The notes below the pieces were generated by a model. The model was not told the origin of the DNA. It saw only the letters and a list, made by a program, of their open reading frames with translations, and searched no databases. A program made the position numbers and the translations under genes. From positions 1 through 32,000 of the forward strand of contig CAWIUL010000012.1 in NCBI GenBank assembly GCA_963839305.1: DNA of 32,000 nucleotides, in the 5' to 3' direction. This document shows positions 2,865-29,633 of this stretch, piece by piece (within the stretch, counting starts at the first letter, position 1; every line of letters begins with the position of its first letter). Origin of the DNA: an uncultured delta proteobacterium. GTDB lineage: Bacteria; Myxococcota_A; Polyangia; Polyangiales; Polyangiaceae.

Positions 2865-4138
2865 GGCATCCTCCACTGCGTGAGAGGCTCTCGTGGGACT
2901 GCGAATCCGGCGGCCGCGTCGAGGTCGACGAGCGCGTGCTCGAGGGTCGTCGCGGCCACGAGGCGCGCGAGCTCCGCGTCGACGAGCGAGCGCGTCGCGA
3001 GGAGGAGATCGGCAAGTCCGTCTTCGCCGTCGTGTAAGCTCGCGAAGGCGACGTCGAGCGCCCTGTGCGTCGCGGGCAAGACCAGCTCGTCGTAGGACTT
3101 CACACGGAGCGCCGCGGCGGTCGCGTCACGCCACGCGAGCGCGACCTCGCCGGCGACGTCGACTCGTGCTCCCTCGACCCGCGTGCGCCAGGCGCTCGCC
3201 TCGAGCCGCGCGGCGTCGAACCGAGCCTTGCGCTCGCCCCAGAGCCACGGGAGCTCAACGGTGAGCGACGCGCCCGCACCGCTGATGCTCGTGGGTCCGA
3301 CGGGCGCGAAATAGGAGCGCGCCCACCGTGATCGCGGGCGCGAGCCACTCGCGCTTCGCGGCCGAGCTCCGAGCGTCCTCGACCTCCGCGGCCGCGCGCG
3401 CCATCGCCACCTCGGGCCGTCGCGACTGCCCCTCTTCGACGATGCGCGTGACGCTCCACGCGGGCGCCGAGGGCAACATGCTTGCGACGGGCTCGGGAAG
3501 CGCGCCGTCCACCTGACGAACGAGGAGCGCGTTGATTTGCGCGCGCGCGCCCTGCCGCCGGATGCGGGACTCCTCGTGCTCGACCGTCATCGTCGCGAGC
3601 TCGACGTCCGCTTGCGTCACGTCGGAGAGTGGCCGCCGGCTTCGGTCTTCGCGCGCGCCGCCGCGACGATGCGCTGGGCGAGGTCGATGTGCGTCCCGTG
3701 GAGACGCATGCGCTCCGTCGCCTCGTAGTAGTCGACGAACGCGTGCGCGGCGCGCTTCCGTAGATCGCGCTCGACGTTCGACGTCTCGAGCTTCACCGCG
3801 CGAGCCTCCGCGCGGACGGCGTCGGCCCGAGCGCCGAGCGCCAACCCCATCGCGGGGAACGACTGCCGCACGCCAGCCATGAGCATTCCCTGCGTGCTCG
3901 TGAACGGCAGCTGCCAGATCTGAACCTCGAGCTCGGGGCTCGGGAGCTTGCCCTCCGCGTCTGCGCGACGCTCGATTGCGCTCGCGCGTTCTTGGGTCGC
4001 GCGGATCGTCGGGTTGCGCTCGACGGCGAGCGACACGACGGCCTCGCGATCGAGGGGCGATGGGATTTCCGGAGCGATCGCGCTCGGGCTCGCGAAGAGC
4101 AAGAGCGCGCCGGCTGCGAACGTGCAGCGAAGACGCAG
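2861..4138 (-). pseudogene. TolC/CusC-like outer-membrane efflux factor, frameshifted; no canonical start (CTG after an in-frame TAA)
   Basis: Signal-like (L)RLRCTFAAGALLLFASPSA followed by PLDREAVVSLAVERNPTIRATQERASAIERRADAEGKLPSPELEVQIWQLPF. Later blocks (3255-3620 and 2861-3103, the latter reading ...DELVLPATHRALDVAFASLHDGEDGLADLLLATRSLVDAELARLVAATTLEHALVDLDAAAG) are in other frames. Confidence 0.65.
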
Positions 4139-4192
4139 TTATCTCCTCTGGAAGCAGATGGAACGCGAACGCCGGCCGTCAGCCGGTCGCGG

Positions 4193-4573
4193 TCACAGGA
4201 GGAAGACGGAGAGTCGAGCGTGCTGACGTTCGAGCGGCGGTCCGGTCCAATCGGGCAGAGCGCCGTTTGCGACGCGAGAAGAAGACGCGGGCGGGATGAT
4301 CGCGAGCGGCGCGCCGAACGTCGGCAGGAGATCGCTCGTGATCGCCGCGGTCACGATCGGCTGGACGGCGTCACCAGGCGACGCGTGCGTGCGGACCTCG
4401 CAGCAGCTCGCGACGTCGAGCGTGGGAGTCGCGTCGTGGCGCTCGCTCGCGCAGCACCCGTCCATCACGGTGTTCGTCGTGCGGCAGACCATGTAGCCGC
4501 GACCGGCGACGAGGACGGCAGCGAAGAGCGCAGCGGCCAAGAGCAGGCCGAAGGCTCGACGCACGGTCGCCAC
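4193..4573 (-). CDS. small exported Cys-rich protein heading the efflux operon (function unknown, possibly metal-related)
   Basis: Intact 126-aa ORF with N-terminal hydrophobic segment FGLLLAAALFAAVLVAG and CC pairs (DGCCASE, SCCEV). It is co-directional with and directly upstream of the OMF-MFP-RND genes. Confidence 0.5.
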   Translation of the reverse strand: MATVRRAFGLLLAAALFAAVLVAGRGYMVCRTTNTVMDGCCASERHDATPTLDVASCCEVRTHASPGDAVQPIVTAAITSDLLPTFGAPLAIIPPASSSRVANGALPDWTGPPLERQHARLSVFLL

Positions 4574-4587
4574 AACCGTTCATGTTC

Positions 4588-7092
4588 CTAATTGTGGTCA
4601 CGCGCCTCCCGTATGGTCAAGTGCGGTCGCATCACCCCGAGGATGCGCTTCATCCACTGCACCAGCAGCAGGTACGTGGCGGTCGCGACCACGAGGAACA
4701 CGAAGTAGCGCGCCGGCAGCGGCACGAACCCGAGCAAGCGCGCGAGCGGCGTGAGCGGCAGGACGCACGCGATCGCCACGACGCGCGCACGGTCGTGAGC
4801 GCGAGCGGGCGGCTCGGGCGGCTCGCGGAACGGGCTTCGCATCGTGCGGATGACGAAGAGCACGAGCGTCTGCGTCGCCAGCGACTCGACGAACCAGCCG
4901 GTGTGGAAGAGCGCCTCGCCGGCGTGGAAGACGTGCAGCAGCACGAAGAAGGTCAGAAAGTCGTAGAGCGAGCTGATCGGCCCGATGACGAGCATGAAGT
5001 TGCGGATCAGTCCGGATGTCCCAGCGCTGCGGCTTGCGGATGAACGTCGGGTCCACGTTGTCGGTCGGGATCGTGACCTGCGCGAGGTCGTAGAGGAAGT
5101 TGTTGAGGAGGATCTGCGTCGGCAGCATCGGCAGGAACGGCAGGAACAGCGACGCGCCCGCCATGCTGAACATGTTGCCGAAGTTCGAGCTGGTGCCCAT
5201 GAGCAGGTACTTCATGACGTTGCCGAACGCCTTGCGCCCCTCGAGGATGCCCGCGTGCAGCACGCCGAGACCGCGTTCGAGCAGGATGATGTCGGCGGCG
5301 TCGCGCGCGACATCGACCGCGCCGGCGACGGAGATGCCGACGTCGGCCGCGTGGAGCGACGGCGCGTCGTTGATGCCGTCGCCGAGGAAGCCGACGACGT
5401 GGCCTGCGGCGCTTCAGCGCGAGGATGATGCGGTTCTTCTGCGCGGGCGAGACGCGCGCGAAGACGCGTCGTCTGCTCGGCGACGTGCGCGAGCGCGGCG
5501 TCGCGTCATCCGCTCGATCTCGTCGCCCAGGACGATCTCGCTCGCGTCGATGCCCGACCTCGCTCGCAGACGTGGCGCGTGACCAGCTCGTTGTCGCCGG
5601 TGAGGATCTTGACCGTGGACGCCGTCGCGCTGCAGCGCGTCGATCGCGTCGCGCGCGTCTTCGCAGCGGCGGATCGGCGAACGCGAGGAAGCCGGCGAGC
5701 ACCAGATCGCGCTCGTCGGCGCGGCGTAGGCGGCCTGCGCCGGCGACGTCGCGCGTACGCGACGGCGAGCACGCGGAAGCCCTCGCGCGCTCAGCGCCTC
5801 GGTACGCGCTGCGGCACTGCGCGCGGCCGTCGCGCGTCGAGCGCGGCGCCGCTCCGACCGCCGTGCGAGCGCAGCGAGGATCGCCTTCCGGCGCGCCTTT
5901 GGTGATCAGGAGCCGCTCGCCCGTCCTGCTCGACGACGACCGAAGGCGGCGGCGCTCGAAGTCGAACGGGATCTCGTCGATCTTCGTGTAGCCGCGGCGT
6001 CGGCCGGCGTCGCGGCGCGCGCGAGGATCGCCGCGTCGAGCGGGCTCGGATGCCGGTCTCGAAGCGGCTGTTGATCGCGGCGAGCCAGGAGCACCGGCGC
6101 TCGGCTGCGCGCCGAGCGCGTCGAGCGCGCGCATCGAGCTCATCTCGCCCGCGGTGAGCGTGCCGGTCTTGTCGCTGCACAGGATGTCGATGCTGCCGAA
6201 GTTCTGGATCGCGGCGAGGTGCTTGACGATGACCTTGCTCGCGCGCCATCGCGACCGCGCCGCTGCGCGAGCGTCACCGTGGTGATCATCGGCAGGAACT
6301 CGGGCGTGAGACCCGACGGCCAGCGCGACCGCGAAGAGCAGCGACTCGAGCGCGTCGCGGTGCATCGCGATGCTCGACGACGAGGATGAACAGCACCAGG
6401 AAGAAGCACCGTCTGCATGATCAGGAAGCCGAACTGCGCGATGCCGCGCTCGAACTCGGTCTCGGGCGGCGCGCGTCGCGAGCCGCGTCGCGATGTCGCC
6501 GAACGCGTCGCGCGCGCCGGTCGCGAGCACCAGCGCGGTCGCCGTGCCGCTCACGACCGAGGTTCCGAGGAAGACCATGTCGCGTCCGTCGCGCTCCGCG
6601 CCGCGCGCTCCTTCTCGACCGGCAGCGACTCGCCGGTGAGCGCCGCCTCCTGCACGTGCAGGTCCTGCGCCTCGAGCAGCCGCGCGTCGGCCGGGAACGA
6701 GATCGCCCGCGGACAGGCGGACGACGTCGCCGGGCACGAGCTCGCGGCGCGGCAGCTCGACGCCACGCGCCGTCGCGCAGCACGGTCGCGGTGGGCGCGA
6801 CCTGCGTCGCGCAGCCGCCGGCGGCACGCTCCGAGCGAAACGTCTGACGAAGTTCGACGATCACGCTGAGCGACGACCATCGACGACGATGATCGCCGCG
6901 TTCGCGAGCTCGCCGACGAACGCCGACACGCCGCTCGCGAGGAGCAGGATCGACGACGAGCGGGTTCGCGAACTGGACAGGAGCTCCATCAGGTGCGAGC
7001 GCTGCTTCTGGGGCGCCGGGTCGTTGGCGCCGCTGTCACGATGCGCGCTTGCGCCTCGCGCGACGAAAGACCTCGCGGCGTTCGTTGCGCGT
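4588..7092 (-). pseudogene. MgtA-like Mg2+-type P-type ATPase, multiply frameshifted
   Basis: ATG at 7092 (MSVDAQRTPRGLSSREAQARIV). Blocks lie in different frames: ILLLASGVSAFVGELANAAIIVV, SIDILCSDKTGTLTAGEM (DKTGT phosphorylation motif, ~6160-6200), GDGINDAPSLHAADVGISVAG, LHAGILEGRKAFGNVMKYLLMGTSSNFGNMFSMAGASLFLPFLPMLPTQILLNNFLYDLAQ. The C-terminus GPISSLYDFLTFFVLLHVFHAGEALFHTGWFVESLATQTLVLFVIRT is also recognisable. Confidence 0.75.
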
Positions 7093-8669: not shown

Positions 8670-8744
<75 letters not shown>

Positions 8745-8773
8745 CCCAGAATCACGCTGAATTCTTTGGGTTT

Positions 8774-10456: not shown

Positions 10457-10919
10457 GCATCATCGCCGCAGGCACGGTCGCGAATCTCGCGACCCGCACT
10501 TTGGACCAAACGCTCCCGAGCTCCAGGTTCGGTGACGAAGCCCTTCGCCTCTCGAGCGTGCTCGTGAACGTCTCGCGCGCGCGAAGGCGAAGCGCAAAGC
10601 GATCGACGCGTGGGAGCAGTACGGCACGCCGCTCTCCATCCTCGTTGGGACGGCCGCGGCGCTCAAAGGCAATCGATCCGAAACCGGAGGGTTCTCCTCC
10701 CTGCTCTTTGAAAATCGGACAGGACTTGGGCCACCGAAAGGTGGCTCTCTCCTGATTGTCTCGAGGCGTTTCAGTCGTCGAGGTCGTCGTCCTCGGCAAG
10801 CACGCCGTCGAGCTTTCCGTCGAGCCCAGGTCCGCGACGAGGATCACGTCGGCCAGCGTATGAGTCGACACGCCGGCACGTAAACCAAATCCGTCAATCG
10901 CGTTGCGGCGCCAGTTCGA

Positions 10920-11348
10920 TCACAGCGGCAGCTTCATCTTCGCCTGCTCAGGAGTGCGCGCGCCTTTCCTGTCGTTGCACGCGTAGCAAGACGTGACGAT
11001 GTTCTCCCACGCGGTCTTGCCGCCCTGCACGCGTGGGACGACGTGATCGTAGTTGAGCTTGTCCATCGCGAACCGCGTCGCGCAGTACTGGCAGACGAAG
11101 TTGTCGCGGGCCATCACGTTGATGCGCGAGAACTTCACGCCCTTCTTGAAGGAAGCAACGGGCTTGATCAGTCGCGCGACAGCAGGCATGCGAATGGTGA
11201 GGTTTCGCTCCTTCGAGGAGTAGATGATTTCGTCGTACTCGCTGAGGATCTCCACCTTGCCGGTGAAGTGCTCGGTGATCACTTCCTGCCAGGAAGCAAC
11301 GCGATGCGGAATCATATAGTGATTGAGAACGAGTGTTGGGAGGCTCAT
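10920..11348 (-). CDS. HNH endonuclease (phage-type), intact
   Basis: 142 aa with VCQYCATRF....LNYDHVVPRVQGGKTAWENIVTSCYACNDRKGARTPEQA (CxxC...H-N-H...CxxC). It is visibly more AT-rich than its surroundings. The ATG lies 20 nt downstream of the last tRNA of the array on the same strand. Confidence 0.85.
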   Translation of the reverse strand: MSLPTLVLNHYMIPHRVASWQEVITEHFTGKVEILSEYDEIIYSSKERNLTIRMPAVARLIKPVASFKKGVKFSRINVMARDNFVCQYCATRFAMDKLNYDHVVPRVQGGKTAWENIVTSCYACNDRKGARTPEQAKMKLPL

Positions 11349-11368
11349 GACACACCAATGGATGTTCG

Positions 11369-11441
11369 TGGGCGCACGTGGAATTGAACCACGATTTCCG
11401 ACTTATCAGGCCGGTGTCTTAGACCTTTCGACGATGCGCCC
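11369..11441 (-). tRNA. tRNA-Ile (anticodon GAT)
   Basis: Acceptor GGGCGCA/TGCGCCC, anticodon arm CCGGC-CTGATAA-GTCGG, T arm CGTGG-TTCAATT-CCACG, A73, no encoded CCA. Confidence 0.85.
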
Positions 11442-11494
11442 GAGTTGACGACTTCAATGCGACAGACGAATGACGGCACGATTGCAGACTGCGG

Positions 11495-11567
11495 TGGGAG
11501 GATCGGGGATCGAACCCGACGGATCTGCCTTGTCGCGGCAGCGTGTTCGCCAGCTCACTCTCCTCCC
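11495..11567 (-). tRNA. tRNA-Val-like (anticodon GAC) with non-canonical anticodon loop
   Basis: Acceptor GGGAGGA/TCCTCCC and T arm TCGGG-TTCGATC-CCCGA are clean. The anticodon arm is CTGCC-GCGACAA-GGCAG, i.e. G32 and C33 in place of the near-universal U33. Confidence 0.6.
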
Positions 11568-11639
11568 GTGGTCGCGAGATTCGAACTCGCAGTCCCTCCG
11601 TCCCGAACGGAGTGCTCTACCAGGTTGAGCCACACCTAG
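11567..11639 (-). tRNA. tRNA-Pro(CGG)-like, probable pseudo-tRNA
   Basis: D arm GCTC-AACCTGGTA-GAGC, anticodon arm CTCCG-TTCGGGA-CGGAG and T arm GCGAG-TTCGAAT-CTCGC are good. The acceptor strands CTAGGTG / GACCACG pair at only 4 of 7 positions, and the 3' strand overlaps the 5' end of the neighbouring tRNA. Confidence 0.35.
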
Positions 11640-11640
11640 A

Positions 11641-11716
11641 TGGTTGGGGCGGAGGGGCTCGAACCCCCATAGCCGGAATCAAAATCCGACGTCCTTGCCG
11701 ATTGAACGACGCCCCA
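11641..11716 (-). tRNA. tRNA-Gln (anticodon TTG)
   Basis: U1-A72 acceptor TGGGGCG/CGCCCCA, anticodon arm TCGGA-TTTTGAT-TCCGG, T loop TTCGAGC, A73 and encoded CCA. Confidence 0.85.
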
Positions 11717-11723
11717 ATGCAAG

Positions 11724-11798
11724 TACCAACGAAGGGATTCGAACCCATACTGTCTTGATCCTGAATCAAGCGCCTCCTACCAATTGGGCTACGTTGGC
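11724..11798 (-). tRNA. tRNA with Leu anticodon CAG but short (5-nt) variable region
   Basis: Acceptor GCCAACG/CGTTGGT, Leu-type D arm TAGCCCAATTGGTAGGAGGC, anticodon arm CTTGA-TTCAGGA-TCAAG, variable ACAGT, T loop TTCGAAT, A73. Confidence 0.65.
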
Positions 11799-11802
11799 GT
11801 AG

Positions 11803-11873
11803 AGCCTCCGCTGAGAGTCGAACTCAGACATCGACGTTCGAAGCGTCGAGCGCGGGTCCACCGCGACGAAGGC
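11803..11873 (-). tRNA. tRNA-Arg (anticodon TCG), compact D arm
   Basis: Acceptor GCCTTCG/CGGAGGC, D arm CGCGG-TGGAC-CCGCG, anticodon arm (T)CGACG-CTTCGAA-CGTCG(A), T arm CTGAG-TTCGACT-CTCAG, U73. Confidence 0.65.
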
Positions 11874-11874
11874 G

Positions 11875-11948
11875 TGGCCTCTCCGCTAGGAGTCGAACCT
11901 AGACAACCACTTTCGTAGAGTGGTGCGTCGATCCACGACGACGAAGAG
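11875..11948 (-). tRNA. tRNA-Arg (anticodon ACG), compact D arm
   Basis: Acceptor CTCTTCG/CGGAGAG, D arm GTCG-TGGAT-CGAC, anticodon arm CCACT-CTACGAA-AGTGG, T arm CTAGG-TTCGACT-CCTAG, G73 and encoded CCA. Confidence 0.65.
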
Positions 11949-11954
11949 ATTCAG

Positions 11955-12025
11955 AGCGGGCGAGGGGAATCGAACCCCCACCTTCGCGTAGGCACCGCGA
12001 TGCTCGACCTTCGAGCTGCACCCGC
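11955..12025 (-). tRNA. tRNA-Gly (anticodon GCC)
   Basis: Acceptor GCGGGTG/CGCCCGC, D arm GCTC-GAAGGTC-GAGC, anticodon arm TCGCG-GTGCCTA-CGCGA, T arm GGGGG-TTCGATT-CCCCT, U73. Confidence 0.8.
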
Positions 12026-12036
12026 AAACACACGAG

Positions 12037-12108
12037 AGCGGACAGTCGGATTTGAACCGACGCTCCAGGGCTTGGAAGGCCCGGCGACCGCCACAGTCTT
12101 TTGCCCGC
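12037..12108 (-). tRNA. tRNA-Gly (anticodon TCC)
   Basis: Acceptor GCGGGCA/TGTCCGC, anticodon loop CTTCCAA (one stem mismatch), T arm GTCGG-TTCAAAT-CCGAC, U73. Confidence 0.75.
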
Positions 12109-12115
12109 ATGGCGT

Positions 12116-12205
12116 TGGCGGAAGCATGCAGAGTCGAACTGCTGCGACGAGTCGCCGCAAGACCGCGTAGCAAACGGTTGCCCGGCCACCCAGGCGAATG
12201 CTTCC
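12116..12205 (-). tRNA. tRNA-Ser (anticodon GCT), class II
   Basis: Acceptor GGAAGCA/TGCTTCC, anticodon arm ACCGT-TTGCTAC-GCGGT, long variable arm TGCGGCG-ACT-CGTCGCA, T loop TTCGACT, G73 and encoded CCA. Confidence 0.8.
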
Positions 12206-12209
12206 TCGG

Positions 12210-12292
12210 CGGAAAGTGGAGGAGTCGAACCCCACCGATTTCTCGGCACCGGTTTTCAAGACCGGCATGCGTCCGCACGCAATTCACTTTCC
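12210..12292 (-). tRNA. tRNA-Ser (anticodon TGA), class II
   Basis: Acceptor GGAAAGT/ACTTTCC, anticodon arm CCGGT-CTTGAAA-ACCGG, variable arm CCGA-GAAA-TCGG, T loop TTCGACT, G73. The D arm is irregular. Confidence 0.7.
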
Positions 12293-12303
12293 ATACGTAA
12301 CGA

Positions 12304-12377
12304 TGGTGGACCGACCGAGACTCGAACTCGGATCTCTGACTTGCGACGCCAGCGTCTTGCCGTTGGACGATCAGCCC
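12304..12377 (-). tRNA. tRNA-Ala (anticodon CGC)
   Basis: Acceptor GGGCTGA/TCGGTCC with the G3:U70 Ala identity pair, anticodon arm CTGGC-GTCGCAA-GTCAG, T arm CCGAG-TTCGAGT-CTCGG, A73 and encoded CCA. Confidence 0.8.
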
Positions 12378-12378
12378 A

Positions 12379-12453
12379 TGGCGCCCTCGACCGGGATCGA
12401 ACCGACCTCAACCCGTAGACAGCGGGTCTGCCTCACCAGATGCATACGAGGGC
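12379..12453 (-). tRNA. tRNA-Asp (anticodon GTC)
   Basis: Acceptor GCCCTCG/CGAGGGC, anticodon arm ACCCG-CTGTCTA-CGGGT, T loop TTCGATC, G73 and encoded CCA. Confidence 0.85.
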
Positions 12454-12472
12454 ACAAACTATTAAGAGCGAG

Positions 12473-12546
12473 TGCGAGCGGAGGGATTCGAACCCTCACA
12501 TTCCTGGACTTAAATCAGGCGCCTCTACCAATTGGGCTACGCTCGC
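12473..12546 (-). tRNA. tRNA with Leu anticodon TAA but short (5-nt) variable region
   Basis: Acceptor GCGAGCG/CGCTCGC, D arm TAGCCCAATTGGTAGAGGC, anticodon arm CCTGA-TTTAAGT-CCAGG (31:39 A-C mismatch), variable AATGT, T arm GAGGG-TTCGAAT-CCCTC, A73. Confidence 0.6.
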
Positions 12547-12562
12547 GTGACGCGCTCCGAAG

Positions 12563-12637
12563 TACGAACGGAGAGATTCGAACTCTCACTGTCCTGGGTT
12601 TGAAGCAGGTGCCTCCTACCAATTGGGCTACGTTCGT
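12563..12637 (-). tRNA. tRNA with Leu anticodon CAA but short (5-nt) variable region
   Basis: Acceptor ACGAACG/CGTTCGT, D arm TAGCCCAATTGGTAGGAGGC, anticodon arm CCTGC-TTCAAAC-CCAGG (31:39 C-C mismatch), variable ACAGT, T arm GAGAG-TTCGAAT-CTCTC, A73. Confidence 0.6.
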
Positions 12638-12638
12638 A

Positions 12639-12726
12639 TGGTGTCATCGGAGGGACTCGAACCCTCATACCCCGTTAGGGGCCTAGGTCCTCAGCCTAGT
12701 GTGTATACCAGTTCCACCACGATGAC
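12639..12726 (-). tRNA. tRNA-Leu (anticodon GAG), canonical class II
   Basis: Acceptor GTCATCG/CGATGAC, anticodon arm CTAGG-CTGAGGA-CCTAG, long variable arm CCCC-TAA-CGGGG, T arm GAGGG-TTCGAGT-CCCTC, A73 and encoded CCA. Confidence 0.85.
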
Positions 12727-12733
12727 GTGTCGG

Positions 12734-12806
12734 TGGGCAGATTCGGGATCGAACCGAATTCTCCGAGGCTTCAACTCGGCGCAATGACCACACTTGCTCT
12801 CTGCCC
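12734..12806 (-). tRNA. tRNA-Phe (anticodon GAA)
   Basis: Acceptor GGGCAGA/TCTGCCC, D arm GCAA-GTGTGGTCA-TTGC, anticodon arm CCGAG-TTGAAGC-CTCGG, T arm TTCGG-TTCGATC-CCGAA, A73. Confidence 0.85.
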
Positions 12807-12813
12807 ATGCCGG

Positions 12814-12887
12814 CGTTCCCACAGGGATTCGAACCCTGGTTTCCTGATCGAGAATCAGGCTTCCTTGGCCATCTAGAAGATGGGAAC
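12814..12887 (-). tRNA. tRNA-Glu (anticodon CTC)
   Basis: Acceptor GTTCCCA/TGGGAAC, D arm TTCT-AGATGGCCAA-GGAA, anticodon arm CCTGA-TTCTCGA-TCAGG, T arm CAGGG-TTCGAAT-CCCTG, G73. Confidence 0.85.
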
Positions 12888-12894
12888 AGTCGAG

Positions 12895-12967
12895 CGCGCC
12901 CTATGGGGTTCGAACCCATCTTGCCGGATTGAAAGTCCAGTATCCTGACCGCCTAGAAGAAGGGCGC
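12895..12967 (-). tRNA. tRNA-Glu (anticodon TTC)
   Basis: Acceptor GCGCCCT/AGGGCGC, anticodon arm CTGGA-CTTTCAA-TCCGG, T arm ATGGG-TTCGAAC-CCCAT, G73. Confidence 0.85.
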
Positions 12968-12973
12968 AGCGGG

Positions 12974-13044
12974 AGCTGGCGAGCGGAATCGAACCGCTCC
13001 CGCCGCTTTACGAAAACGGTGCTCCGCCTTGGAGCTACACCAGC
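12974..13044 (-). tRNA. tRNA-Thr (anticodon CGT)
   Basis: Acceptor GCTGGTG/CGCCAGC, D arm GCTC-CAAGGCG-GAGC, anticodon arm CCGTT-TTCGTAA-AGCGG, T arm AGCGG-TTCGATT-CCGCT, U73. Confidence 0.8.
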
Positions 13045-13048
13045 ATTG

Positions 13049-13120
13049 CTCACCGAGAGGGAATCGAACCCCCGATAGGGCGCTTAACAGACGCCTGCCT
13101 TACCACTTGGCTATCGGTGA
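13049..13120 (-). tRNA. tRNA-Asn (anticodon GTT)
   Basis: U1-A72 acceptor TCACCGA/TCGGTGA, anticodon arm GGCGT-CTGTTAA-GCGCC, T arm GGGGG-TTCGATT-CCCTC, G73. Confidence 0.85.
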
Positions 13121-13187
13121 ATACAAAACAGGAGAGGCATGCCCGCATCGACGCGCGCCACGTCCTGGCAAATTTTCAAAGAGCAAA

Positions 13188-13203
13188 GTGCTCGCGAGAG
13201 CAC
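13188..13203 (-). terminator. intrinsic-terminator-like hairpin inside the tRNA array
   Basis: On the minus strand, GTGCTC-TCGC-GAGCAC is followed by TTTGCTCTTTGAAAATTT. It sits in the 84-nt spacer directly after tRNA-Gln(CTG). Confidence 0.45.
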
Positions 13204-13204
13204 C

Positions 13205-13279
13205 TGGTTCGGGCTGAAGGACTCGAACCTTCATTCTCGGTTTCAGAAACCGGCGTCCTAGCCGTTGGACGAAGCCCGA
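13205..13279 (-). tRNA. tRNA-Gln (anticodon CTG)
   Basis: U1-A72 acceptor TCGGGCT/AGCCCGA, anticodon loop TTCTGAA (one stem mismatch), T arm GAAGG-TTCGAGT-CCTTC, A73 and encoded CCA. Confidence 0.8.
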
Positions 13280-13288
13280 AAGCGGCAG

Positions 13289-13359
13289 TGGGTCCGGAGG
13301 GAATCGGACCCTCGCCGAGTGCTTAAGAGGCACCTGCTCGACCTTCGAGCTACGGACCC
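13289..13359 (-). tRNA. tRNA-Lys (anticodon CTT), atypical T loop
   Basis: Acceptor GGGTCCG/CGGACCC, D arm GCTC-GAAGGTC-GAGC (identical to the Gly-GCC gene), anticodon arm GGTGC-CTCTTAA-GCACT, T arm GAGGG-TCCGATT-CCCTC (C at position 55), A73. Confidence 0.7.
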
Positions 13360-13369
13360 ATCGATGAAG

Positions 13370-13442
13370 TGGGACGTTCCGGGATCGAACCGGACTCCTG
13401 CCGCTTAAAAGACGGCTGCATCACCATTGTTGCTAACGTCCC
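13370..13442 (-). tRNA. tRNA-Lys (anticodon TTT)
   Basis: Acceptor GGGACGT/ACGTCCC, anticodon arm GCCGT-CTTTTAA-GCGGC, T arm TCCGG-TTCGATC-CCGGA, A73. Confidence 0.85.
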
Positions 13443-13505
13443 TCTTTCTTCCTCGCCCGTCTCTCACGGGCATGAGTTTGCGTTTCATGATTGCGTTCCT
13501 CGTCT

Positions 13506-13591
13506 TGGTGGGATGCGGTGGAGTCGAACCACTTGCCCGAAGGCCACCGGGTTACAGCCGGCTTGAGCTTCCACTGCTCAGAACGCACCCC
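13506..13591 (-). tRNA. tRNA-Tyr (anticodon GTA), class II
   Basis: Acceptor GGGGTGC/GCATCCC, anticodon arm GCCGG-CTGTAAC-CCGGT, long variable arm, T loop TTCGACT, A73 and encoded CCA. Confidence 0.8.
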
Positions 13592-13708
13592 GCTTCGCGT
13601 GGATGGTTTAAGCGTCGATATCGCTCTTGATGGTTTTGGTTGGTGCTCATCGAGTACACGTCTCCGTGCTCCCAATCGGGAGCGCGAAACTTCGAGCCCA
13701 GAAACGAC

Positions 13709-13741
13709 GAAGGCCGCTCTCGGTTTCCCGAGGCGGCCTTC
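13709..13741 (-). terminator. long GC hairpin with GAAA tetraloop (terminator-like)
   Basis: On the minus strand, GAAGGCCGCCTCGG-GAAA-CCGAG(A)GCGGCCTTC is followed by GTCGTTTCT. It lies between tRNA-His and the array. Confidence 0.4.
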
Positions 13742-13951
13742 CTCTGCGCGTGTTGCGCGTGATGGAAGAACCGCCTCTACGTACCGACCTCCTGATTGCG
13801 TGCGGCCGACTTCGGTTCGATGGAGGCGGGATAGCTGGGCGTAAGCGAGTCACGATCGCCGGACAAAATGCACGACGGCCCAGCAAGCTCTTTTTGCGAG
13901 CTCCGGGCTAGAGACGTGAATTTCGGCGTGGGACACATCATGGGAAAATCT

Positions 13952-14028
13952 TGGGGTGAGTGACGGGATTCGAACCCGTGAATACGTGAGCCACAGACAC
14001 GCGCCTTGACCACTTGGCTACACCCACC
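13952..14028 (-). tRNA. tRNA-His (anticodon GTG) with encoded G-1
   Basis: G-1 pairs with C73. Acceptor GTGGGTG/CACTCAC, D arm GCC-AAGTGGTCAA-GGC, anticodon loop CTGTGGC, T arm ACGGG-TTCGAAT-CCCGT, encoded CCA. Confidence 0.85.
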
Positions 14029-14480: not shown

Positions 14481-14507
14481 TCATCTTCCCCCCTGCTGAC
14501 GGACACC
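14481..14507. repeat. IS3-family left terminal inverted repeat
   Basis: See the mobile_element entry; roughly 22 of 27 positions match the right end. Confidence 0.7.
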
Positions 14508-14542
14508 TCGGATAGCGCGATACTGCGCGGGAGTGTTCGACG

Positions 14543-14854
14543 ATGGGACAAAAGAAGGAACTTAAGAAACGGCGCGCTCGGCGGACGTTCACGGCGGCGC
14601 AGAAGGCCGACGCGGTGCGGCTCGTGAAGAGCGGCAAGTCGGTCGCGCAGGTGGCGCGGGAGCTCGATCTGACGGCAACGTCGCTGCACGTGTGGGTACG
14701 GCGCGCGGAGGCGGATGCCGGCGAGCGTAGCGACGCGCTGACGACCCAGGAGCGCGAGGAGCTGTCGCGGCTGCGACGAGAGGTCAAGCACCTGCAGCGG
14801 GAACGCGACATCCTAAAAGCGGCGGCCACCTTCTTCGCGAAGGAGAGCGCGTGA
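14543..14854 (+). CDS. IS3-family transposase OrfA (HTH)
   Basis: MGQKKELKKRRARRTFTAAQKADAVRLVKSGKSVAQVARELDLTATSLHVWVRR... followed by a leucine-zipper-like ELSRLRREVKHLQRERDILKAAATFFAKE. Confidence 0.85.
   Translation: MGQKKELKKRRARRTFTAAQKADAVRLVKSGKSVAQVARELDLTATSLHVWVRRAEADAGERSDALTTQEREELSRLRREVKHLQRERDILKAAATFFAKESA
14815..14819 (+). promoter_or_regulatory. candidate -1 programmed frameshift site A-AAA-G for the OrfAB fusion
   Basis: orfA codons cta aaa gcg. orfB is in the -1 frame, and that frame is open from this point (PKSGGHLLREGERVKY...). Confidence 0.5.
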
Positions 14855-15723
14855 AGTACGCGTTCATCGATTCGCAGAAGGTGGCCTGGCCGGTCATGGC
14901 CATGTGCGAGGCGCTCGGCGTCTCCAAGAGCGGCTACTACGACTGGCTCGCCGAGCCCATCACCGAGCGTGAGCGTCGCGACGTCGCGCTCGCCTCCAAG
15001 GTCCGCGCCATCTTCGGAGACCATCGCGGCCGCTATGGGAGCCCTCGCGTCGCTGAGGAGCTGCGTGCCGACGGCGAGGTCGTCAACGAAAAGCGCGTCG
15101 CGCGCATCATGCGGGAAACCGGCCTCGTTGCGAGCCGCAGCAAGCGCTTCGTCGCCACGACCGACTCGGCCCACGCCGAGCCGATCGCGCCCAACCTGCT
15201 CGAGCGGAACTTCACCACAGACGCACGCAATCGCGTCTGGGTGACGGACGTGACGGCGATTTGGACGATGGCCGGCTGGTTGTATCTTGCAGCCATTCTC
15301 GACCTGTACTCGCGGCGAGTCGTGGGCTGGGCGACCAGCGATACCAACGACACCGCGCTCGCGCTCGACGCGCTCAGAGCAGCGTTGCGCGAGCGTCGCC
15401 CCGCGCCGGGGCTCGTCCACCACTCCGACCGCGGCAGCCCCTACGCGAGCGCCGCCTACCGTGCCGCGCTCTCGACCGCCGGCATCGTCGCGAGCATGAG
15501 CCGCAAAGGCGATTGCTGGGACAATGCCGTCGCCGAAAGCTTCAACGCTACCCTCAAGACCGAGGCCATCGACCACGTGCCCGCCGACCACGACGCCGGG
15601 ACGCGCCTCGTCGCCGCGTACATCGATGGCTACTACAACGTCCGGCGTAGGCACTCTTTCCTTGGTTACGAGACCCCGATCACGTTTGAATGGAAGCGGA
15701 CCATCACCGAGATGGCCGCGTGA
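14851..15723 (+). CDS. IS3-family transposase OrfB (DDE/RNase-H-like integrase core)
   Basis: 290 aa: ...GRYGSPRVAEELRADGEVVNEKRVARIMRETGLVA...RVWVTDVTAIWTMAGWLYLAAILDLYSRRVVGWA...VHHSDRGSPYAS..YRAAL...GIVASMSRKGDCWDNAVAESFNATLKTE. Confidence 0.9.
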   Translation: MKYAFIDSQKVAWPVMAMCEALGVSKSGYYDWLAEPITERERRDVALASKVRAIFGDHRGRYGSPRVAEELRADGEVVNEKRVARIMRETGLVASRSKRFVATTDSAHAEPIAPNLLERNFTTDARNRVWVTDVTAIWTMAGWLYLAAILDLYSRRVVGWATSDTNDTALALDALRAALRERRPAPGLVHHSDRGSPYASAAYRAALSTAGIVASMSRKGDCWDNAVAESFNATLKTEAIDHVPADHDAGTRLVAAYIDGYYNVRRRHSFLGYETPITFEWKRTITEMAA

Positions 15724-15732
15724 GTTACGAAA

Positions 15733-15759
15733 CCTGTCCGCCCAGCGGGGGGAAGATCA
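15733..15759. repeat. IS3-family right terminal inverted repeat
   Basis: See the mobile_element entry. Confidence 0.7.
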
Positions 15760-15933: not shown

Positions 15934-16007
15934 TGGACTCGGAGGCAGGATTCGAACCTGCGCCCAGCAGGTCCGAGCCTGCCGTTCTACCGCTGAACTA
16001 CTCCGAG
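15934..16007 (-). tRNA. tRNA-Pro (anticodon CGG)
   Basis: C1-G72 acceptor CTCGGAG/CTCCGAG, D arm GTTC-AGCGGTA-GAAC, anticodon arm GCAGG-CTCGGAC-CTGCT, T arm GCAGG-TTCGAAT-CCTGC, encoded CCA. Confidence 0.85.
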
Positions 16008-19288: not shown

Positions 19289-19873
19289 TCAGCCACCGTC
19301 GCCTTCGTCTCGTCGGGCAAACCCCACGTGCCGGCGTGAGTACGCGGGAAGACGCGCAGACACGAGGTCGATGGCCTCCTGCGCATTCGCCGCGCGATAC
19401 ACGCAGTCGTCCGGGATGTCCGGATAGCGCTCCCGATGATCGAGTCGTTGCCCTGCGAGCGTCTCGCTCCAACCCGGCGCCACGATCGCGACGATCAGGC
19501 GCCGGTACATCCACGCGAAGGCGATCTCCGAGAGCGTTCCGGCGCCGCCTCCCACGGCGACCATGGCGTCGCAATTGGCCACGAGAGAGTTCCGCGCGTG
19601 ATCGAGTCCGCTCGCGATGACGATGTCCGCCCACGCGTTGGCTTCTGCGGGATTCGGGTGTGGCAGGATCGCGAGCGTGTCCCCTTCGTGGTAGCGCGCG
19701 GACTCGTGCGCACCGCGTAATGCGGCCTCCATCACGCCACCAAGGCCGCCGGAGACGACGCGCATCCCCGCATCGACGGCGAGGCGTCCGAGGGTGCGTG
19801 CGTGTTCGTACGCGGGGTTGCCGTCGCTGACGCCAGCGTCACCCACCACAGCGAGCAGCGGTCTCCGCTTCAT
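19289..19873 (-). CDS. LOG / TIGR00725-like Rossmann-fold protein (lysine-decarboxylase-like family)
   Basis: VVGDAG....A..LGRLAVDAGMRVVSGGLGGVMEAALRGA...LAILP... and the LOG-type motif VAVGGGAGTLSEI. The ATG at 19873 overlaps the giant gene's TGA as ATGA, with GGAGG 7 nt upstream. An alternative ATG lies at 19894. Confidence 0.75.
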   Translation of the reverse strand: MKRRPLLAVVGDAGVSDGNPAYEHARTLGRLAVDAGMRVVSGGLGGVMEAALRGAHESARYHEGDTLAILPHPNPAEANAWADIVIASGLDHARNSLVANCDAMVAVGGGAGTLSEIAFAWMYRRLIVAIVAPGWSETLAGQRLDHRERYPDIPDDCVYRAANAQEAIDLVSARLPAYSRRHVGFARRDEGDGG

Positions 19874-22800
19874 TGGTCTACCTCCGGCATCCATTCGGCG
19901 TCATCGCAAGGAACTGCGCGTTGCATCGCCAGCATTCTCGGGACGTCGGGTACATCGTGCAGCGCGAAGCCGAGCCGCACTCCCATTCGGGACAGTGCGG
20001 CAGCGACACGCGCGTCCACGGCCCCGTCGGGATACGCGGCGGAGCACCCACTGCCTCCCATCCTGACCGTCCACTCGCGAGCCTGAGTGACGCATTCCGC
20101 GAACTCCCCATCATTGTAGAGCGTCCATCGAACGTGCTCCGTGCCATGCATGGCGATGCTCAGGTCTCCGGTCGCGACAAACTCTCGGAGCGTCCTTTCG
20201 TGCAGGTAAAGCGATCGCCGGAGCGCATCACCGTTGGCCGCCACGCGGTGGGCGGCCTCGAGCTGGTCGCGGACGGACGTTTGGAGGAAGGCCTCGCGCC
20301 AGTTTCGCATCTTCATCCGCTCCGAAGATTCTTCATCTGCATAGATCGCGTCGAGTGGAGCGAGGCTCGGCCACCCATCATCGAGTGCGGCGCGCACGAA
20401 GACCGTGCTCGGGATACCGAGCTTTTGCAGGATGGGCCACGCGTGTTCGGCGAAATCTCGGTAGCCATCATCGACCGTCACCAGGAGGGCGTTCTCCGGA
20501 AGAGCAACCTCGCCAGCCGCGGCGCGTTCGACATCGCCCAAATGAACGGGCACGTAACGCCGAACGAGCCGGCGAAGCTGCGCCTCGAAGGCGGCAGTGG
20601 ACACGACCATTCCCCGGTCGCGATAGACGCGCACAAGGCGGTTCGCGTGCGGGTCGGGGAGCACGCGGTGATAGCTCAGCGTCGTGAGCTTCAGAGCATT
20701 CGCCGCTCGTCGTCGCGGGTACGACGGCTTCGAAGTGAGCGATCGGATCACGCTTTCACGGGCGCTCCGTGCGGCGGCGTCTCTTGGGTCCGTCGGCTCG
20801 TGCAGATAGTTGGACTCGCGGATCCAGACCGGCCGTTTCGCCATCTCGATGATCGGCAGCATGAAGGCCCAGTCCGTCGCGCGCGCCCACCAAGACGCAC
20901 CATCTTGCAGATCGCTCGTCTCGATCCGGTCGAAGAGCGTTTTTCGGAACGTGCGCAGGTGTTGCCAGACCGCGCCGCCGCGCTTCGCACGTGGCGCTTC
21001 GAAGTCCACCGTGTAATTCGACTGCTTGTCCGTCCGGACCATCGACCCAACCGTCACGTCAGCGCCGCGCGCGTGCTCCTCCGCGACGCGCTCGAGCGCC
21101 TTCGTGCTCCCGAGCGCGTCGTCTAGGTCGACGAGGACAATCGCGGCTTCAGGTCTCGCGACGAGGTTCCGCACCGCGTGGTGCGTGTTCGCGAGCAGCC
21201 CTACGCGGCGCCTCCGCCGAACGAACGTCACGCGATCCCCAAAACGGACGCACTCACGCTTGAGGGTGTCATCCGAGCCATCGTCGGACGCGTCGTCGAT
21301 GACGATCGCCCCCCACGCCTGGAACGTTTGCGCGGCGAGGGAGTCCAGACAGCGTCGAATGCGCCCGGCGCCCACGTTGCGACCGCAGACGACGAGCACC
21401 ATGGACTCGTCGCGACCGCGCTGCAAAGATCGCGGCGAGCCGAGAACTTGCGCGGCGCGGGGACGGCCGACGTCGCGACCGTCGCGTTCGATCTCGTCGA
21501 TGAGCAGAAGAAGATCGTCGGCCTTCGACTTTCGCGCGTTGTCGGGGTGTGCGAACCAATGGGCGCGCGACCCGAGTCGTAGAGAGGTCCCCTTTCCAAA
21601 CGCCACGGCTCGGTCCAAGGAACGGTGCCACGGCAGCTGAAAGCGTCCATCACGCACCTCGTTCGCCAAAGGCCGGAGCCCTTGAGCGCGCGCCTTGTGG
21701 ATCCATCCGCAAATTGCCTCGACGCGGAAGGGACCCCGCTCGTCGCCATCGCGAACACGCGGAGCGTCGCCTGGCACTGGCAGCGCGAGCGTGAGCGCGT
21801 CCGGTCGTGCATCGAACGCGTCGATGGCTTCGCGAACGAAGTCGGCGACGGGATCGGGCCGCCCGACAAGCGTGTCGACATCCGCGTGAAGGACGAAATC
21901 TCCGGTGCACGCGTCGAGCGCCGAAAGGAACGCGACGAGCGCTTGGCCATTGGCTGCGTGTGTGGTGCCGCAGTCCGTGCCGAACCAGCGCTCCGCGACC
22001 TTGGCGATTTCGTGTTCGGCGGTAGGGGCCTCGACGACGCGGTCAACGATGCCGCGCCGTCGGAGGCGATCGAGCGCGGCGCGCGCACCGGGAAGATCGG
22101 CATGCGAGTGCTCACGCACGAACCCGGTCAGCGACGGGTCGAGCGCGACGATCACTTCGTCGAAGGCGCGTGGACGGGCCAATTGGTGGACGAGGTGCTC
22201 AACCTGAGCCTCGAGGGTCTCGGCGTCCATCGGACACGCTTTGATCACGAGTGATGTGCGCGCCTCGATCCGCGCGAGGGGTCGGAGCTCGAAAAGACGG
22301 AACTCGGGCACGCGCTCGAACCGATGGAGGTCCGTGCCGTCGACAATCGATTCTAGTGCGACGGCGAAACCTGCCGTAGCGAAGGCGCGTCGATACGCGT
22401 CGAGCGGGCGATGGACCTCGGTGCGAAGGTCTCCTGATGCCTCGCTGCGCTTCGTGTAGGACGAGATTGAAAGATATGCGTTCTCCTCTGGGTCGACGCG
22501 CGTCTGCGATGTAGTGCGCTCGACCCGACAACTTGTGGGGTCGCACACGGCGACGAGAACGCGACCGGTTTCTCGAACGACGTGCCGCATGCGCGCGAGG
22601 GCATCGCGCATCCCGCCGTCCTCGAGGGTGCAAAGCACGAGAGAGCATGTGATTGCGTCGAATGGCGCGCGTTCGAGGACGCGCCCGATGCAGCGTTCGT
22701 CGACGAAGACCCCGGGAGCTGCGGCCTCCCATCGCGCTCCCAAGCGCTCGTCCGGGTCGAACGCGAGAAGGCCGCGGACGCGCCGCTGGCCTCGCGGTTT

Positions 22801-26523: not shown

Positions 26524-26573
26524 GGCCGACTGTACCACACCAGTCCACGAACCGTTCACGATGGGTTGCGCAG

Positions 26574-29626: not shown

Positions 29627-29633
29627 CCATCCA

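Follow-up and report, generated by a model that had tools for sequence, protein, structure and literature searches.

The DNA analyzed here (hereafter the window) comprises the first 32,000 nucleotides of a 1.18-Mb contig (CAWIUL010000012.1, assembly GCA_963839305.1) from an uncultured delta proteobacterium assigned to the Polyangiaceae, and it carries a long array of tRNA genes followed by a gene for an HNH endonuclease. The results below describe the array, its relatives in other genomes and on phage-like contigs, the condition of this copy, and the explanations that may account for it.

A dense one-strand tRNA array is followed by an HNH endonuclease gene

As shown in Table 1, ARAGORN with default settings called 24 tRNA genes, all on the minus strand, between positions 11368 and 13442, in the order Lys (two genes), Gln, Asn, Thr, Glu (two), Phe, Leu (three), Asp, Ala, Ser (two), Gly (two), Arg (two), Leu, Gln, Pro, Val, and Ile. 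A Tyr-GTA gene preceding these was missed with default settings and was called at the 95% threshold; it is 84% and 80% identical to the Tyr genes that ARAGORN calls in the same array position at the related loci L001 and L002, respectively (L numbers denote loci that encode homologs of the window HNH protein). Within this 25-gene core, the spacers range from -2 to 18 nt, save three of 51, 63, and 84 nt, and 8 of the 25 genes encode the CCA end. A preliminary description, in which 25 consecutive minus-strand cloverleaves, the same gene order, short spacers with three long exceptions, and CCA in eight genes had been read from the letters, was thus borne out. Using the Rfam tRNA and tRNA-Sec models, we found that the tRNA model matched 21 of the 25 genes (41-64 bits), that the two Ser genes and the Asp and Tyr genes were matched by the tRNA-Sec model only (27-46 bits), and that Val-GAC, Arg-TCG, and Arg-ACG were left unmatched even at E ≤1.

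The array begins further upstream than had been supposed. The tRNA-His gene had been recognized as a gene but kept apart from the array; because it precedes Tyr at a conserved position in L001, L002, L057, and L058 (460-490 nt from Tyr in those loci versus 360 nt in the window), it belongs to the array. Counting His, the full array comprises 26 genes (11368-14027), 21 of its 25 spacers are at most 18 nt long, and the density is 9.8 genes per kb (11.2 per kb for the 25-gene core). A tRNA array unit is defined as at least 20 tRNA genes at a density of at least 2 per kb (Tran et al. 2016, PMC4758250), and the window array lies above both values. All genes are on the minus strand and spaced closely enough for co-transcription, and the isotype order is non-periodic and without repeats, Tandem Repeats Finder (TRF) detecting just the Arg-TCG/Arg-ACG duplicate. 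Neither ARAGORN nor Rfam revealed an rRNA gene in the array, from which Met, Trp, and Cys (as had been noted before) and many isoacceptors are missing; the cell must therefore have other tRNA genes. Directly 3' of Ile-GAT, on the same strand, lies an open reading frame (ORF) with Pfam matches to HNH_5 (PF14279, E = 1.7e-15) and HNH (E = 4.6e-14), which is homologous to the HNH gene at the Anabaena trn operon discussed below.

Two terminator-like hairpins lie within the array. The first sits in a ∼250-nt noncoding block of the His-Tyr gap that is conserved in L001 and L002 and that has no match in Rfam. Across three arrays (gap at window 13593-13951, minus strand; L001 5491-5949; L002 4809-5292) this block is ∼70% conserved, and it contains, in order, the motif AATCAGGAGGNCGGTACNTAGRGGCGGTT, the hairpin, and AGGAGACGTGTA...ATG immediately before Tyr. 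The block may serve in regulation, or it may hold a small ORF or an RNA. The second, with the tail TGCTCTTTGAAAAT, occupies the 84-nt spacer between Gln-CTG and Asn and is a possible boundary between transcription units. Another hairpin with this tail was seen on the opposite strand (10686-10729, plus strand), 200 nt past the HNH gene, which is truncated (see below). The motif is inverted there, at 10702-10729, and its two copies, the array one within 13158-13205 (minus strand), form a 28-nt inverted repeat (I1) with 86% complementarity. The motif TGCTCTTTGAAAAT is absent from every related locus and was for this reason rejected as a conserved regulatory element of the array family. We also rejected a CRISPR-like or tandem-repeat artifact, because the units are distinct cloverleaves, and discarded as tRNA-like noise both a weak Rfam match to the Y RNA YrlA (11614-11669, 21 bits) and matches to plastid ycf2 on the strand opposite to the tRNAs.

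Table 1. Coordinates of the array genes, listed from His to HNH, and of associated features in the window
Feature	Position	Strand	Basis
tRNA-His(GTG), first gene of the conserved array; G-1 and CCA encoded	13952-14027	-	ARAGORN; Rfam 61.1 bits; 88% identical to L001 His
Terminator-like GC hairpin with T-rich tail, between His and Tyr	13701-13742	-	Sequence, alignment, consensus fold
tRNA-Tyr(GTA), atypical: 8-bp acceptor stem, 4-bp T stem, long variable arm; CCA encoded	13506-13591	-	ARAGORN at 95% threshold; Rfam tRNA-Sec 27.5 bits; L001/L002 orthologs
tRNA-Lys(TTT)	13369-13442	-	ARAGORN; Rfam 50.7 bits; 86-91% identical to L001/L002 Lys-TTT
tRNA-Lys(CTT), D arm same as in Gly-GCC	13288-13359	-	ARAGORN; Rfam 60.0 bits; repeat family D9
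tRNA-Gln(CTG), CCA encoded	13205-13279	-	ARAGORN; Rfam 58.8 bits
Terminator-like hairpin with tail TGCTCTTTGAAAAT, in Gln-Asn spacer	13158-13205	-	Sequence
tRNA-Asn(GTT)	13048-13120	-	ARAGORN; Rfam 62.0 bits
tRNA-Thr(CGT)	12972-13044	-	ARAGORN; Rfam 48.7 bits
tRNA-Glu(TTC)	12894-12967	-	ARAGORN; Rfam 49.5 bits
tRNA-Glu(CTC)	12812-12887	-	ARAGORN; Rfam 55.3 bits
tRNA-Phe(GAA)	12732-12806	-	ARAGORN; Rfam 48.0 bits
tRNA-Leu(GAG), normal class II with long variable arm; CCA encoded	12639-12726	-	ARAGORN; Rfam 56.0 bits
tRNA-Leu(CAA), 76 nt, no long variable arm	12562-12637	-	ARAGORN; Rfam 53.6 bits; covariation
tRNA-Leu(TAA), 75 nt, no long variable arm	12472-12546	-	ARAGORN; Rfam 59.8 bits; covariation
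tRNA-Asp(GTC), U37; CCA encoded	12379-12453	-	ARAGORN; Rfam tRNA-Sec model only, 28.5 bits
tRNA-Ala(CGC), CCA encoded	12304-12377	-	ARAGORN; Rfam 48.9 bits
tRNA-Ser(TGA)	12208-12292	-	ARAGORN; Rfam clan match (tRNA-Sec model) 45.7 bits
tRNA-Ser(GCT), CCA encoded	12116-12205	-	ARAGORN; Rfam clan match 31.7 bits
tRNA-Gly(TCC)	12036-12108	-	ARAGORN; Rfam 41.3 bits
tRNA-Gly(GCC), U37; Thr-type acceptor and T arm; candidate alloacceptor shift	11954-12025	-	ARAGORN; Rfam 46.4 bits; alignment
tRNA-Arg(ACG), non-canonical D arm (5-bp stem, 5-nt loop, one nucleotide after acceptor stem); CCA encoded	11875-11948	-	ARAGORN; no Rfam match; covariation, 14 orthologs
tRNA-Arg(TCG), tandem duplicate of Arg-ACG	11802-11873	-	ARAGORN; TRF period 75
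tRNA-Leu(CAG), 76 nt, no long variable arm	11723-11798	-	ARAGORN; Rfam 56.8 bits; covariation
tRNA-Gln(TTG), CCA encoded	11641-11716	-	ARAGORN; Rfam 54.5 bits
Pro(CGG)-like aberrant gene, 69 nt	11566-11634	-	ARAGORN; Rfam 40.9 bits
tRNA-Val(GAC), C33, no U8	11493-11567	-	ARAGORN; no Rfam match; 85% identical to L001 Val-GAC
tRNA-Ile(GAT), last gene before HNH	11368-11441	-	ARAGORN; Rfam 63.6 bits
HNH endonuclease gene (PF14279 HNH_5), 142 aa	10920-11348	-	Pfam; homologs; BLASTP; tblastn of C terminus; blastn
IS3-family insertion sequence, 23-nt inverted ends (I9)	14483-15757	+	Pfam; inverted repeat

The array belongs to a family shared by Polyangia and very large phage-like elements

We searched for homologs of the HNH protein in 5.8 billion proteins and, separately, in one genome per GTDB species, in IMG/VR, and, by tblastn, in plasmids. 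The first search yielded 1,960 homologs, the closest being 75-79% identical to the window protein. Contigs encoding close homologs carry a long one-strand tRNA array before the HNH gene with the gene order seen in the window, and collinear arrays accompanied by an HNH homolog at 51-79% identity contain up to 36 tRNA genes on metagenome contigs of 37-600 kb. In L001 (a 285-kb contig), for example, 34 tRNA genes precede the HNH gene and two follow it, the order being His, Tyr, Lys-TTT, Lys-CTT, Gln-CTG, Asn, Thr, Glu, Phe, Leu, Asp, Ala, Gly, Arg, Leu-CAG, Gln-TTG, Pro-CGG, Val, Ile, HNH, Pro-GGG, Ser-GGA; the same arrangement is found in L002 (a 600-kb contig), L057, and L058. The scan of one genome per GTDB species returned 42 HNH loci. 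The 24 of these with 51-64% identity all come from metagenome-assembled genomes (MAGs) labeled Polyangiaceae, Labilithrix, Polyangiales, Myxococcales, or (delta)proteobacteria, and nearly all of them have arrays of up to 34 tRNA genes around the HNH gene. That the nearer HNH-array relatives are exclusively from Polyangia, along with a GC content of 63-72% outside the array, likewise suggests a member of Polyangia as the host of the window. Judged by gene order and sequence, the window array is a member of a gene-order-conserved family in genomes of Polyangia (Myxococcota) and in very large phage-like elements.

The phage-like side of this family is represented in two sets of contigs. Viral contigs of 155-435 kb in IMG/VR encode HNH homologs at 35-60% identity amid looser tRNA clusters, and two of these loci include a transfer-messenger RNA (tmRNA) gene. 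In the viral contig L052, tmRNA and EF-Tu genes lie inside the tRNA cluster, and the local order around the HNH gene (...Arg, Arg, Gln-TTG, Val, Ile, Leu, HNH, Pro-GGG, Ser-GGA) is that of the window family. The contigs of the closest relatives are dense in small unannotated ORFs, and several ORFs of L001 match PHROG families; these relatives recur across many samples (P0009: 18 contigs, ten of them of 0.2-1 Mb). From their sequences, they look like huge phages or megaplasmids. In the closest relatives, a Ro60/TROVE-vWA gene, with a role in RNA quality control, directly follows the HNH gene (L002 11099-12802, L057 7694-9361, L058 11333-13024), and an IF3 gene is found within 10 kb of the HNH gene in L058-L060 (L058 20084-20534). 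Ro60, IF3, EF-Tu, and tmRNA together represent a broader translation and RNA-repair toolkit on the related elements, none of which is kept in the window.

More distant homologs occur on plasmids. Matches were obtained in Nostoc, Acaryochloris, Mycobacterium, Tsukamurella, Paenarthrobacter, and others, and include Paenarthrobacter pYJN5-1, with 36 tRNA genes in the 10 kb upstream of the HNH gene, and a plasmid of Mycobacterium intracellulare, with the HNH gene amid 28 tRNA genes; the HNH proteins of these two plasmids are 35-38% identical to the window type. The HNH protein encoded beside the 24-tRNA trn operon of Anabaena plasmid delta is 36% identical to the Polyangia protein (E = 2e-23). Homologs at no more than 39% identity in Gastranaerophilales, Anaerolineae, Dehalococcoidia, and others have no arrays nearby, so that an association with arrays is not a property of the entire HNH protein family. 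When the DNA of the whole array was compared with phage and plasmid collections, single tRNA genes were the only matches, and exact-protein look-ups with the HNH, HSP20, and WYL proteins of the window returned no hit.

The array is accessory, and related arrays have been eroded at a syntenic locus

The preliminary description had suggested comparing the surrounding segment in relatives. At both the DNA and the protein level, homology to related loci is limited to positions 10925-14027 of the window; the flanks are unrelated, and beyond the array L001 is likewise different from L002. Together with the occurrence on viral contigs, this indicates a patchy distribution with horizontal transfer, in agreement with the proposal that the array is accessory, moves horizontally, and is akin to phage tRNA clusters. 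A related array can be stably chromosomal, because in Labilithrix-like MAGs (L012, 2251-5065, and its relatives among L007-L028) the array and HNH gene hold one locus between recA/comM and the gene for M18 aminopeptidase that is syntenic across ∼10 species. At this locus, the size of the array falls from 34 tRNA genes to three called by ARAGORN. L011 retains eight; in L028, where ARAGORN calls the three, blastn maps four tRNA-sized segments of the L012 array and the HNH gene, and the array interval has shrunk from 6.8 to 1.4 kb, a reduction from 32 to about 4 tRNA genes. Because it has been eroded in L011 and L028, the array is dispensable at this locus, which provides natural material for studying array erosion.

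Redundancy with dispersed genes, which the preliminary description had raised as a question for the genome, is visible within the window for one gene. A canonical stand-alone tRNA-Arg(TCG) gene (8670-8746, plus strand; Rfam 63 bits), 3 kb from the array, duplicates the non-canonical Arg-TCG of the array. This gene stands at the left edge of a segment of lower GC content and is a plausible integration target; no second copy of its 3' end was found in the window. We detected no integrase and no conjugation genes, and between 8 and 20 kb there were no direct repeats resembling attachment (att) sites; the flanking ORFs had no PHROG match of known phage function apart from HNH. The cluster is thus not surrounded by the structural, replication, or lysis genes, or by the integrase and att sites, of a prophage, and the phage-like genes previously placed beside the array reduce to the HNH gene and an insertion sequence. 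Nor does the array correspond to a housekeeping operon, for which canonical tRNAs, a conserved chromosomal context, and a complete or rRNA-linked gene set would be expected.

The window copy is a reduced derivative

Several genes present in L001, L057, and L058 have no counterpart in the window: it is without Pro-TGG, Arg-CCT, Ala-GGC, Ala-TGC, Thr-GGT, Gly-CCC, Cys, Arg-TCT, Arg-CCG, Val-CAC, and the Pro-GGG gene that follows HNH, and has two Ser genes in place of the missing genes. The genes that normally come after HNH (Pro-GGG, Ser-GGA, and Ro60) are gone. The HNH gene itself is shortened: its closest homologs have 176-178 residues versus 142 in the window, where the C-terminal ∼36 residues are missing and homology to the relatives ends at ∼10925. 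The catalytic core is intact, and the conserved C-terminal tail (RKTPYRPKTLPL...PKEWQPFI) was absent downstream in all frames when searched for by tblastn. The truncation suggests that the enzyme is probably disabled.

The gene that had been labeled Pro-like is indeed aberrant. Its acceptor stem and D stem cannot both form, and it abuts Val-GAC without a spacer exactly where the relatives carry Val-CAC; on this evidence it is a probable deletion product or pseudogene. The window copy is hence a reduced derivative, with approximately ten tRNA genes lost, an aberrant Pro gene, the tail of HNH and the genes downstream gone, and an IS3 element adjacent.

The sequences also bear on how array genes arise. 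A stretch of 17 identical nucleotides in the D arm is common to Gly-GCC (12001-12017) and Lys-CTT (13335-13351), which confirms the shared arm noted earlier. It had been taken to indicate duplication within the array followed by anticodon change. Taken by itself the common D arm is a weak argument, since Thr and Lys genes in other arrays carry it too. Duplication and anticodon change have some support from two other observations: Arg-TCG and Arg-ACG are tandem duplicates with a period of 75 nt, and the acceptor and T arm of Gly-GCC match those of Thr genes and not those of orthologous Gly-GCC genes. The mixed presence of encoded CCA, which had been read as a sign of heterogeneous origin, does not show such an origin.

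Structural constraint is conserved in canonical and non-canonical array tRNAs

Next we considered whether the array genes retain their pairing. The window genes are 70-90% identical to their closest orthologs with their stems still paired; mismatches, scored per 17 pairs of the acceptor, anticodon, and T stems, average 0.42 in the window versus 0.2-1.0 in relatives, and 24 of the 26 window genes keep full cloverleaf pairing, the level of intact relatives. The same holds for genes of unusual form. Fourteen orthologs of Arg-ACG, the gene with the compact D arm, share one cloverleaf in which 98.7% of the cells are paired and 14 of the 22 pairs have changed on both sides, compared with at most 4 in controls with slid partners. 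A long variable arm is the mark of bacterial tRNA-Leu. Three Leu genes of the window (CAA, TAA, and CAG) are 75-76 nt long and lack this arm, with the Leu-type D loop and A73 kept; across the Polyangia arrays (L001, L012, L051, and others) this short form covaries as a class I cloverleaf (19 genes, 96.8% pairing, and changes on both sides in 17 of 20 pairs). These patterns of covariation indicate that the array family has clearly been kept foldable.

Deviations also occur in the anticodon loop, where U33 and a purine at position 37 are near-universal in standard tRNAs. Among 521 tRNAs of Polyangia arrays (loci L001-L028), 56 have C33 and 15 have a pyrimidine at 37. A base other than U33 or a pyrimidine at 37 is concentrated in the array genes for Val-GAC (9/13), Gly-GCC (11/20), and Asp-GTC (13/14), and the window follows this pattern, with C33 in Val-GAC and U37 in Gly-GCC and Asp-GTC. 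Such deviations are found at lower frequency in the viral loci; in the Anabaena array, neither C33 nor a pyrimidine at 37 was found. Phage tRNAs have been reported to evade anticodon nucleases through changes in the anticodon loop (PMC10264068), which makes nuclease evasion an attractive but hypothetical reading of these deviations.

The array reads host-preferred codons

To assess the suggestion that the array supplies tRNAs for A/U-ending codons rare in a GC-rich host, we computed codon preference from 4,444 codons in genes neighboring the array. The preferred codons are CTC (57% of Leu), CGC (50% of Arg), ACG (65% of Thr), GCG (49% of Ala), CCG, GTC, GGC, AAG, GAG, and CAG, and the array anticodons GAG, ACG, CGT, CGC, CGG, GAC, GCC, CTT, CTC, and CTG read the codons that the host uses most. 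G34 anticodons read C- and U-ending codons alike in all bacteria. A rare codon is served only by Leu-TAA, which reads TTA (1% of Leu), and the suggestion was therefore not upheld. The GC content is 63-72% outside the array and 0.585 in the array region. Because the tRNA bases have a GC content of 0.60 and the spacers one of 0.55, this dip is largely tRNA composition. The GC content at third codon positions (GC3) of the HNH gene, 0.83, is host-like, and the related phage-like loci have a GC content of 58-63%.

Comparison with described tRNA arrays

L-arrays are described as horizontally spread, supernumerary, and cryptic gene sets with a conserved, co-regulated HNH homing endonuclease, and homing endonucleases beside phage tRNA genes are known to mobilize those genes (PMC8421152). 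The trn operon on plasmid delta of Anabaena (Nostoc) sp. PCC 7120 (Santamaria-Gomez et al. 2021, PMC8421152) resembles the window array in being a one-strand, tight, and non-periodic set of ∼25 tRNA genes (supernumerary in Anabaena) that adjoins a homologous HNH_5 gene, in having several short Leu genes (75-78 nt), and in including some defective genes. It differs in its cyanobacterial host, its gene order, and the position of HNH upstream of the array, whereas in the window family HNH lies downstream of or inside the array, the window HNH is truncated, and C33 and pyrimidine-37 are present. In Anabaena, translation inhibitors induce 23 of the 26 tRNAs of the array, and these are aminoacylated in vivo (PMC8421152).

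Array units are also known from chromosomes, plasmids, and phages of Mycobacterium; HNH is their most widespread protein gene (Morgado & Vicente 2018, PMC5966550), and giant linear plasmids of M. avium keep a single embedded HNH gene across four array types with unrelated flanks (PMC12803027). These units share with the window at least 20 densely packed tRNA genes, the embedded HNH gene, and the unrelated flanks, and their tRNAs are redundant with the chromosomal ones but different in sequence; unlike the window array, they have an HNH protein of ∼38% identity, another gene order and phylum, and a plasmid or phage location as opposed to a 1.18-Mb contig. Clusters of huge (jumbo) phages have the same HNH family (35-60% identity) and, in L052, the same local order. 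These and the clusters of other tRNA-rich phages in the comparison set (T4, with segB, and mycobacteriophage clusters C and M) are less tightly packed, with protein genes scattered among the tRNA genes, whereas the window has no surrounding phage structural or replication genes. The array borne by an integrative and conjugative element of Acidithiobacillus (PMC4758250) likewise falls under the definition of an array unit and has an accessory context; in contrast to it, the window showed neither an integrase nor conjugation genes nor att repeats. In the literature searched, no paper linked tRNA arrays to Myxococcota, and the literature on tRNA counts in cultured Polyangia made no mention of arrays. 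The window array is thus of a known kind in a new host clade, and the branch in Polyangia and huge phages is without a published description in the searched literature.

A back-up tRNA pool is the favored explanation

Taken together, the results identify this locus as an L-array-type tRNA array unit with an HNH_5 endonuclease, present as a horizontally acquired and reduced copy, that probably provides a redundant back-up pool of elongator tRNAs. The sequences show its anatomy, family membership, mobility, and structural constraint, and from these we infer expression, charging, the protective role, and the target of HNH. In this scheme, the minus-strand genes would be transcribed as few polycistronic precursors, with the hairpins after His and after Gln-CTG delimiting two or three transcription units. 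RNase P and 3' processing enzymes would cut the precursors, and transcripts of the 17 genes without CCA would receive it from the CCA-adding enzyme of the host. Once charged, the products would act as redundant elongator tRNAs that read preferred codons, with bodies and some anticodon loops (C33 and U37) unlike those of housekeeping tRNAs. The benefit would be that translation is sustained when the normal pool is damaged or limiting because of tRNA-cleaving toxins, defense nucleases, or translational stress, the last having been shown for the Anabaena trn operon. By cleaving DNA at tRNA genes or close to them, the HNH enzyme most likely helped the array to spread and to be reshuffled.

Several observations weigh against this explanation. 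The truncated HNH gene, the lost genes, the aberrant Pro gene, and the adjacent insertion sequence fit decay as well as domestication; within the window, redundancy with housekeeping genes is seen for Arg-TCG only and perhaps for Pro-CGG; a sigma-70-like promoter was looked for and none was found; no tRNA-targeting nuclease was identified nearby; and the selection behind the covariation may have acted in the donor element and not in this chromosome. The main rival follows from these points, namely that the array is an inert, decaying remnant of a tRNA cluster from a huge phage or megaplasmid that still looks tRNA-like only through recent arrival. The loss of some ten tRNA genes, the cut in HNH at ∼10925, the missing downstream genes, the insertion sequence, and the aberrant Pro gene all agree with it, as do the erosion in L011 and L028 and the report that L-arrays are largely cryptic (PMC8421152). 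We nevertheless regard it as unlikely, since full pairing in 24 of 26 genes equals that of intact relatives, and paired stems at 70-90% identity argue against free drift, with the reservation that this constraint may predate transfer.

The remaining rivals fare worse. That the array is a vertically inherited core housekeeping operon and the sole source of its isoacceptors would agree with the single syntenic recA/comM-M18 locus of a related array in many Labilithrix-like species and with anticodons that fit preferred codons, but is very improbable given flanks unrelated to those of any relative, a canonical Arg-TCG gene 3 kb away, the non-canonical genes (three missed by Rfam, C33, U37, and Leu without a long arm), the absence of Met, Trp, and Cys, the near deletion of the syntenic array in L028, the phage-like contigs of the closest relatives, and the linkage to an endonuclease and an insertion sequence. 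Codon compensation, the classical explanation for phage tRNAs, would have the array serve the rare A/U-ending codons of AT-richer foreign genes in a GC-rich host, and U34 anticodons (TAA, TTT, TTC, TTG, TGA, TCC, and TCG) are present as it predicts. However, C34, G34, and ACG anticodons for the most-used codons are equally present, TTA is the only truly rare codon served, and neither the host-like GC3 of HNH nor the GC content of the phage-like loci points to AT-rich genes, so that we consider it the least probable of all. A bolder reading starts from the non-canonical genes: the arrays of Polyangia and huge phages might encode off-standard tRNAs (C33 Val, pyrimidine-37 Asp and Gly-GCC, short-arm Leu, and compact-D-arm Arg) that would still be charged and decode while escaping tRNases of phages, of the cell's own toxin-antitoxin systems, or of competing kin, and might have been domesticated as immunity, with the window as a partly eroded example. 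We hold this reading to be unlikely.

For this window, the result is mainly one of annotation, an accessory and partly eroded array. More broadly, HNH-bearing tRNA arrays are an established but poorly understood mobile cargo, and the class is now extended to Polyangia, where shared gene order and the endonuclease tie the arrays to very large phage-like elements with Ro60, IF3, EF-Tu, and tmRNA. With its many covarying orthologs of non-canonical form, the family is useful comparative material for asking which tRNA features can change with function retained and whether anticodon-loop variants serve in nuclease evasion.

Neighboring genes

The IS3-family element comprises orfA (14543-14854) and orfB (14851-15723) and lies 456 nt upstream of His, as a neighbor outside the conserved module. 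A further tRNA-like gene is found 177 nt from its end (15934-16007, minus strand; Rfam 61 bits; CCA encoded), at the place where a tRNA-Pro had been reported. It is tRNA-like as described but not a normal Pro gene: its anticodon loop has six nucleotides (CUCGGA), ARAGORN assigns it a 2-nt anticodon, and it resembles Pro-CGG minus one G of the usual CGGG run. It has no ortholog in the related arrays. Possible explanations are an assembly error in a homopolymer, a pseudogene, and a tRNA with unusual decoding.

In the left flank (1439-6827, minus strand), genes are split into short adjacent ORFs in different frames; they encode an HlyD-like adaptor, an outer-membrane efflux protein, and a P-type cation ATPase, the last split at 4995/5007. 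These strings of ORFs suggest frequent frameshifts, from pseudogenization or from indel errors in long-read assembly, and call for caution with any single-base anomaly in the window.

The defense loci that had been placed downstream of the array resolve into a WYL regulator, two DUF2130 proteins, and a SLOG protein. The DUF2130 genes (26390-27871 and 29723-31765, both plus strand) flank the gene for the WYL/WCX-domain regulator (28559-29680, minus strand); PADLOC gave a generic WYL match and weak LmuB-like matches only, and the region is a candidate defense-type locus. A 1,974-residue ORF (19870-25794, minus strand), unrelated to the array, encodes two glycosyltransferase family 2 regions and a polysaccharide deacetylase domain, and the SLOG/LOG-like gene (19289-19894) lies directly downstream of it with a 25-nt overlap.

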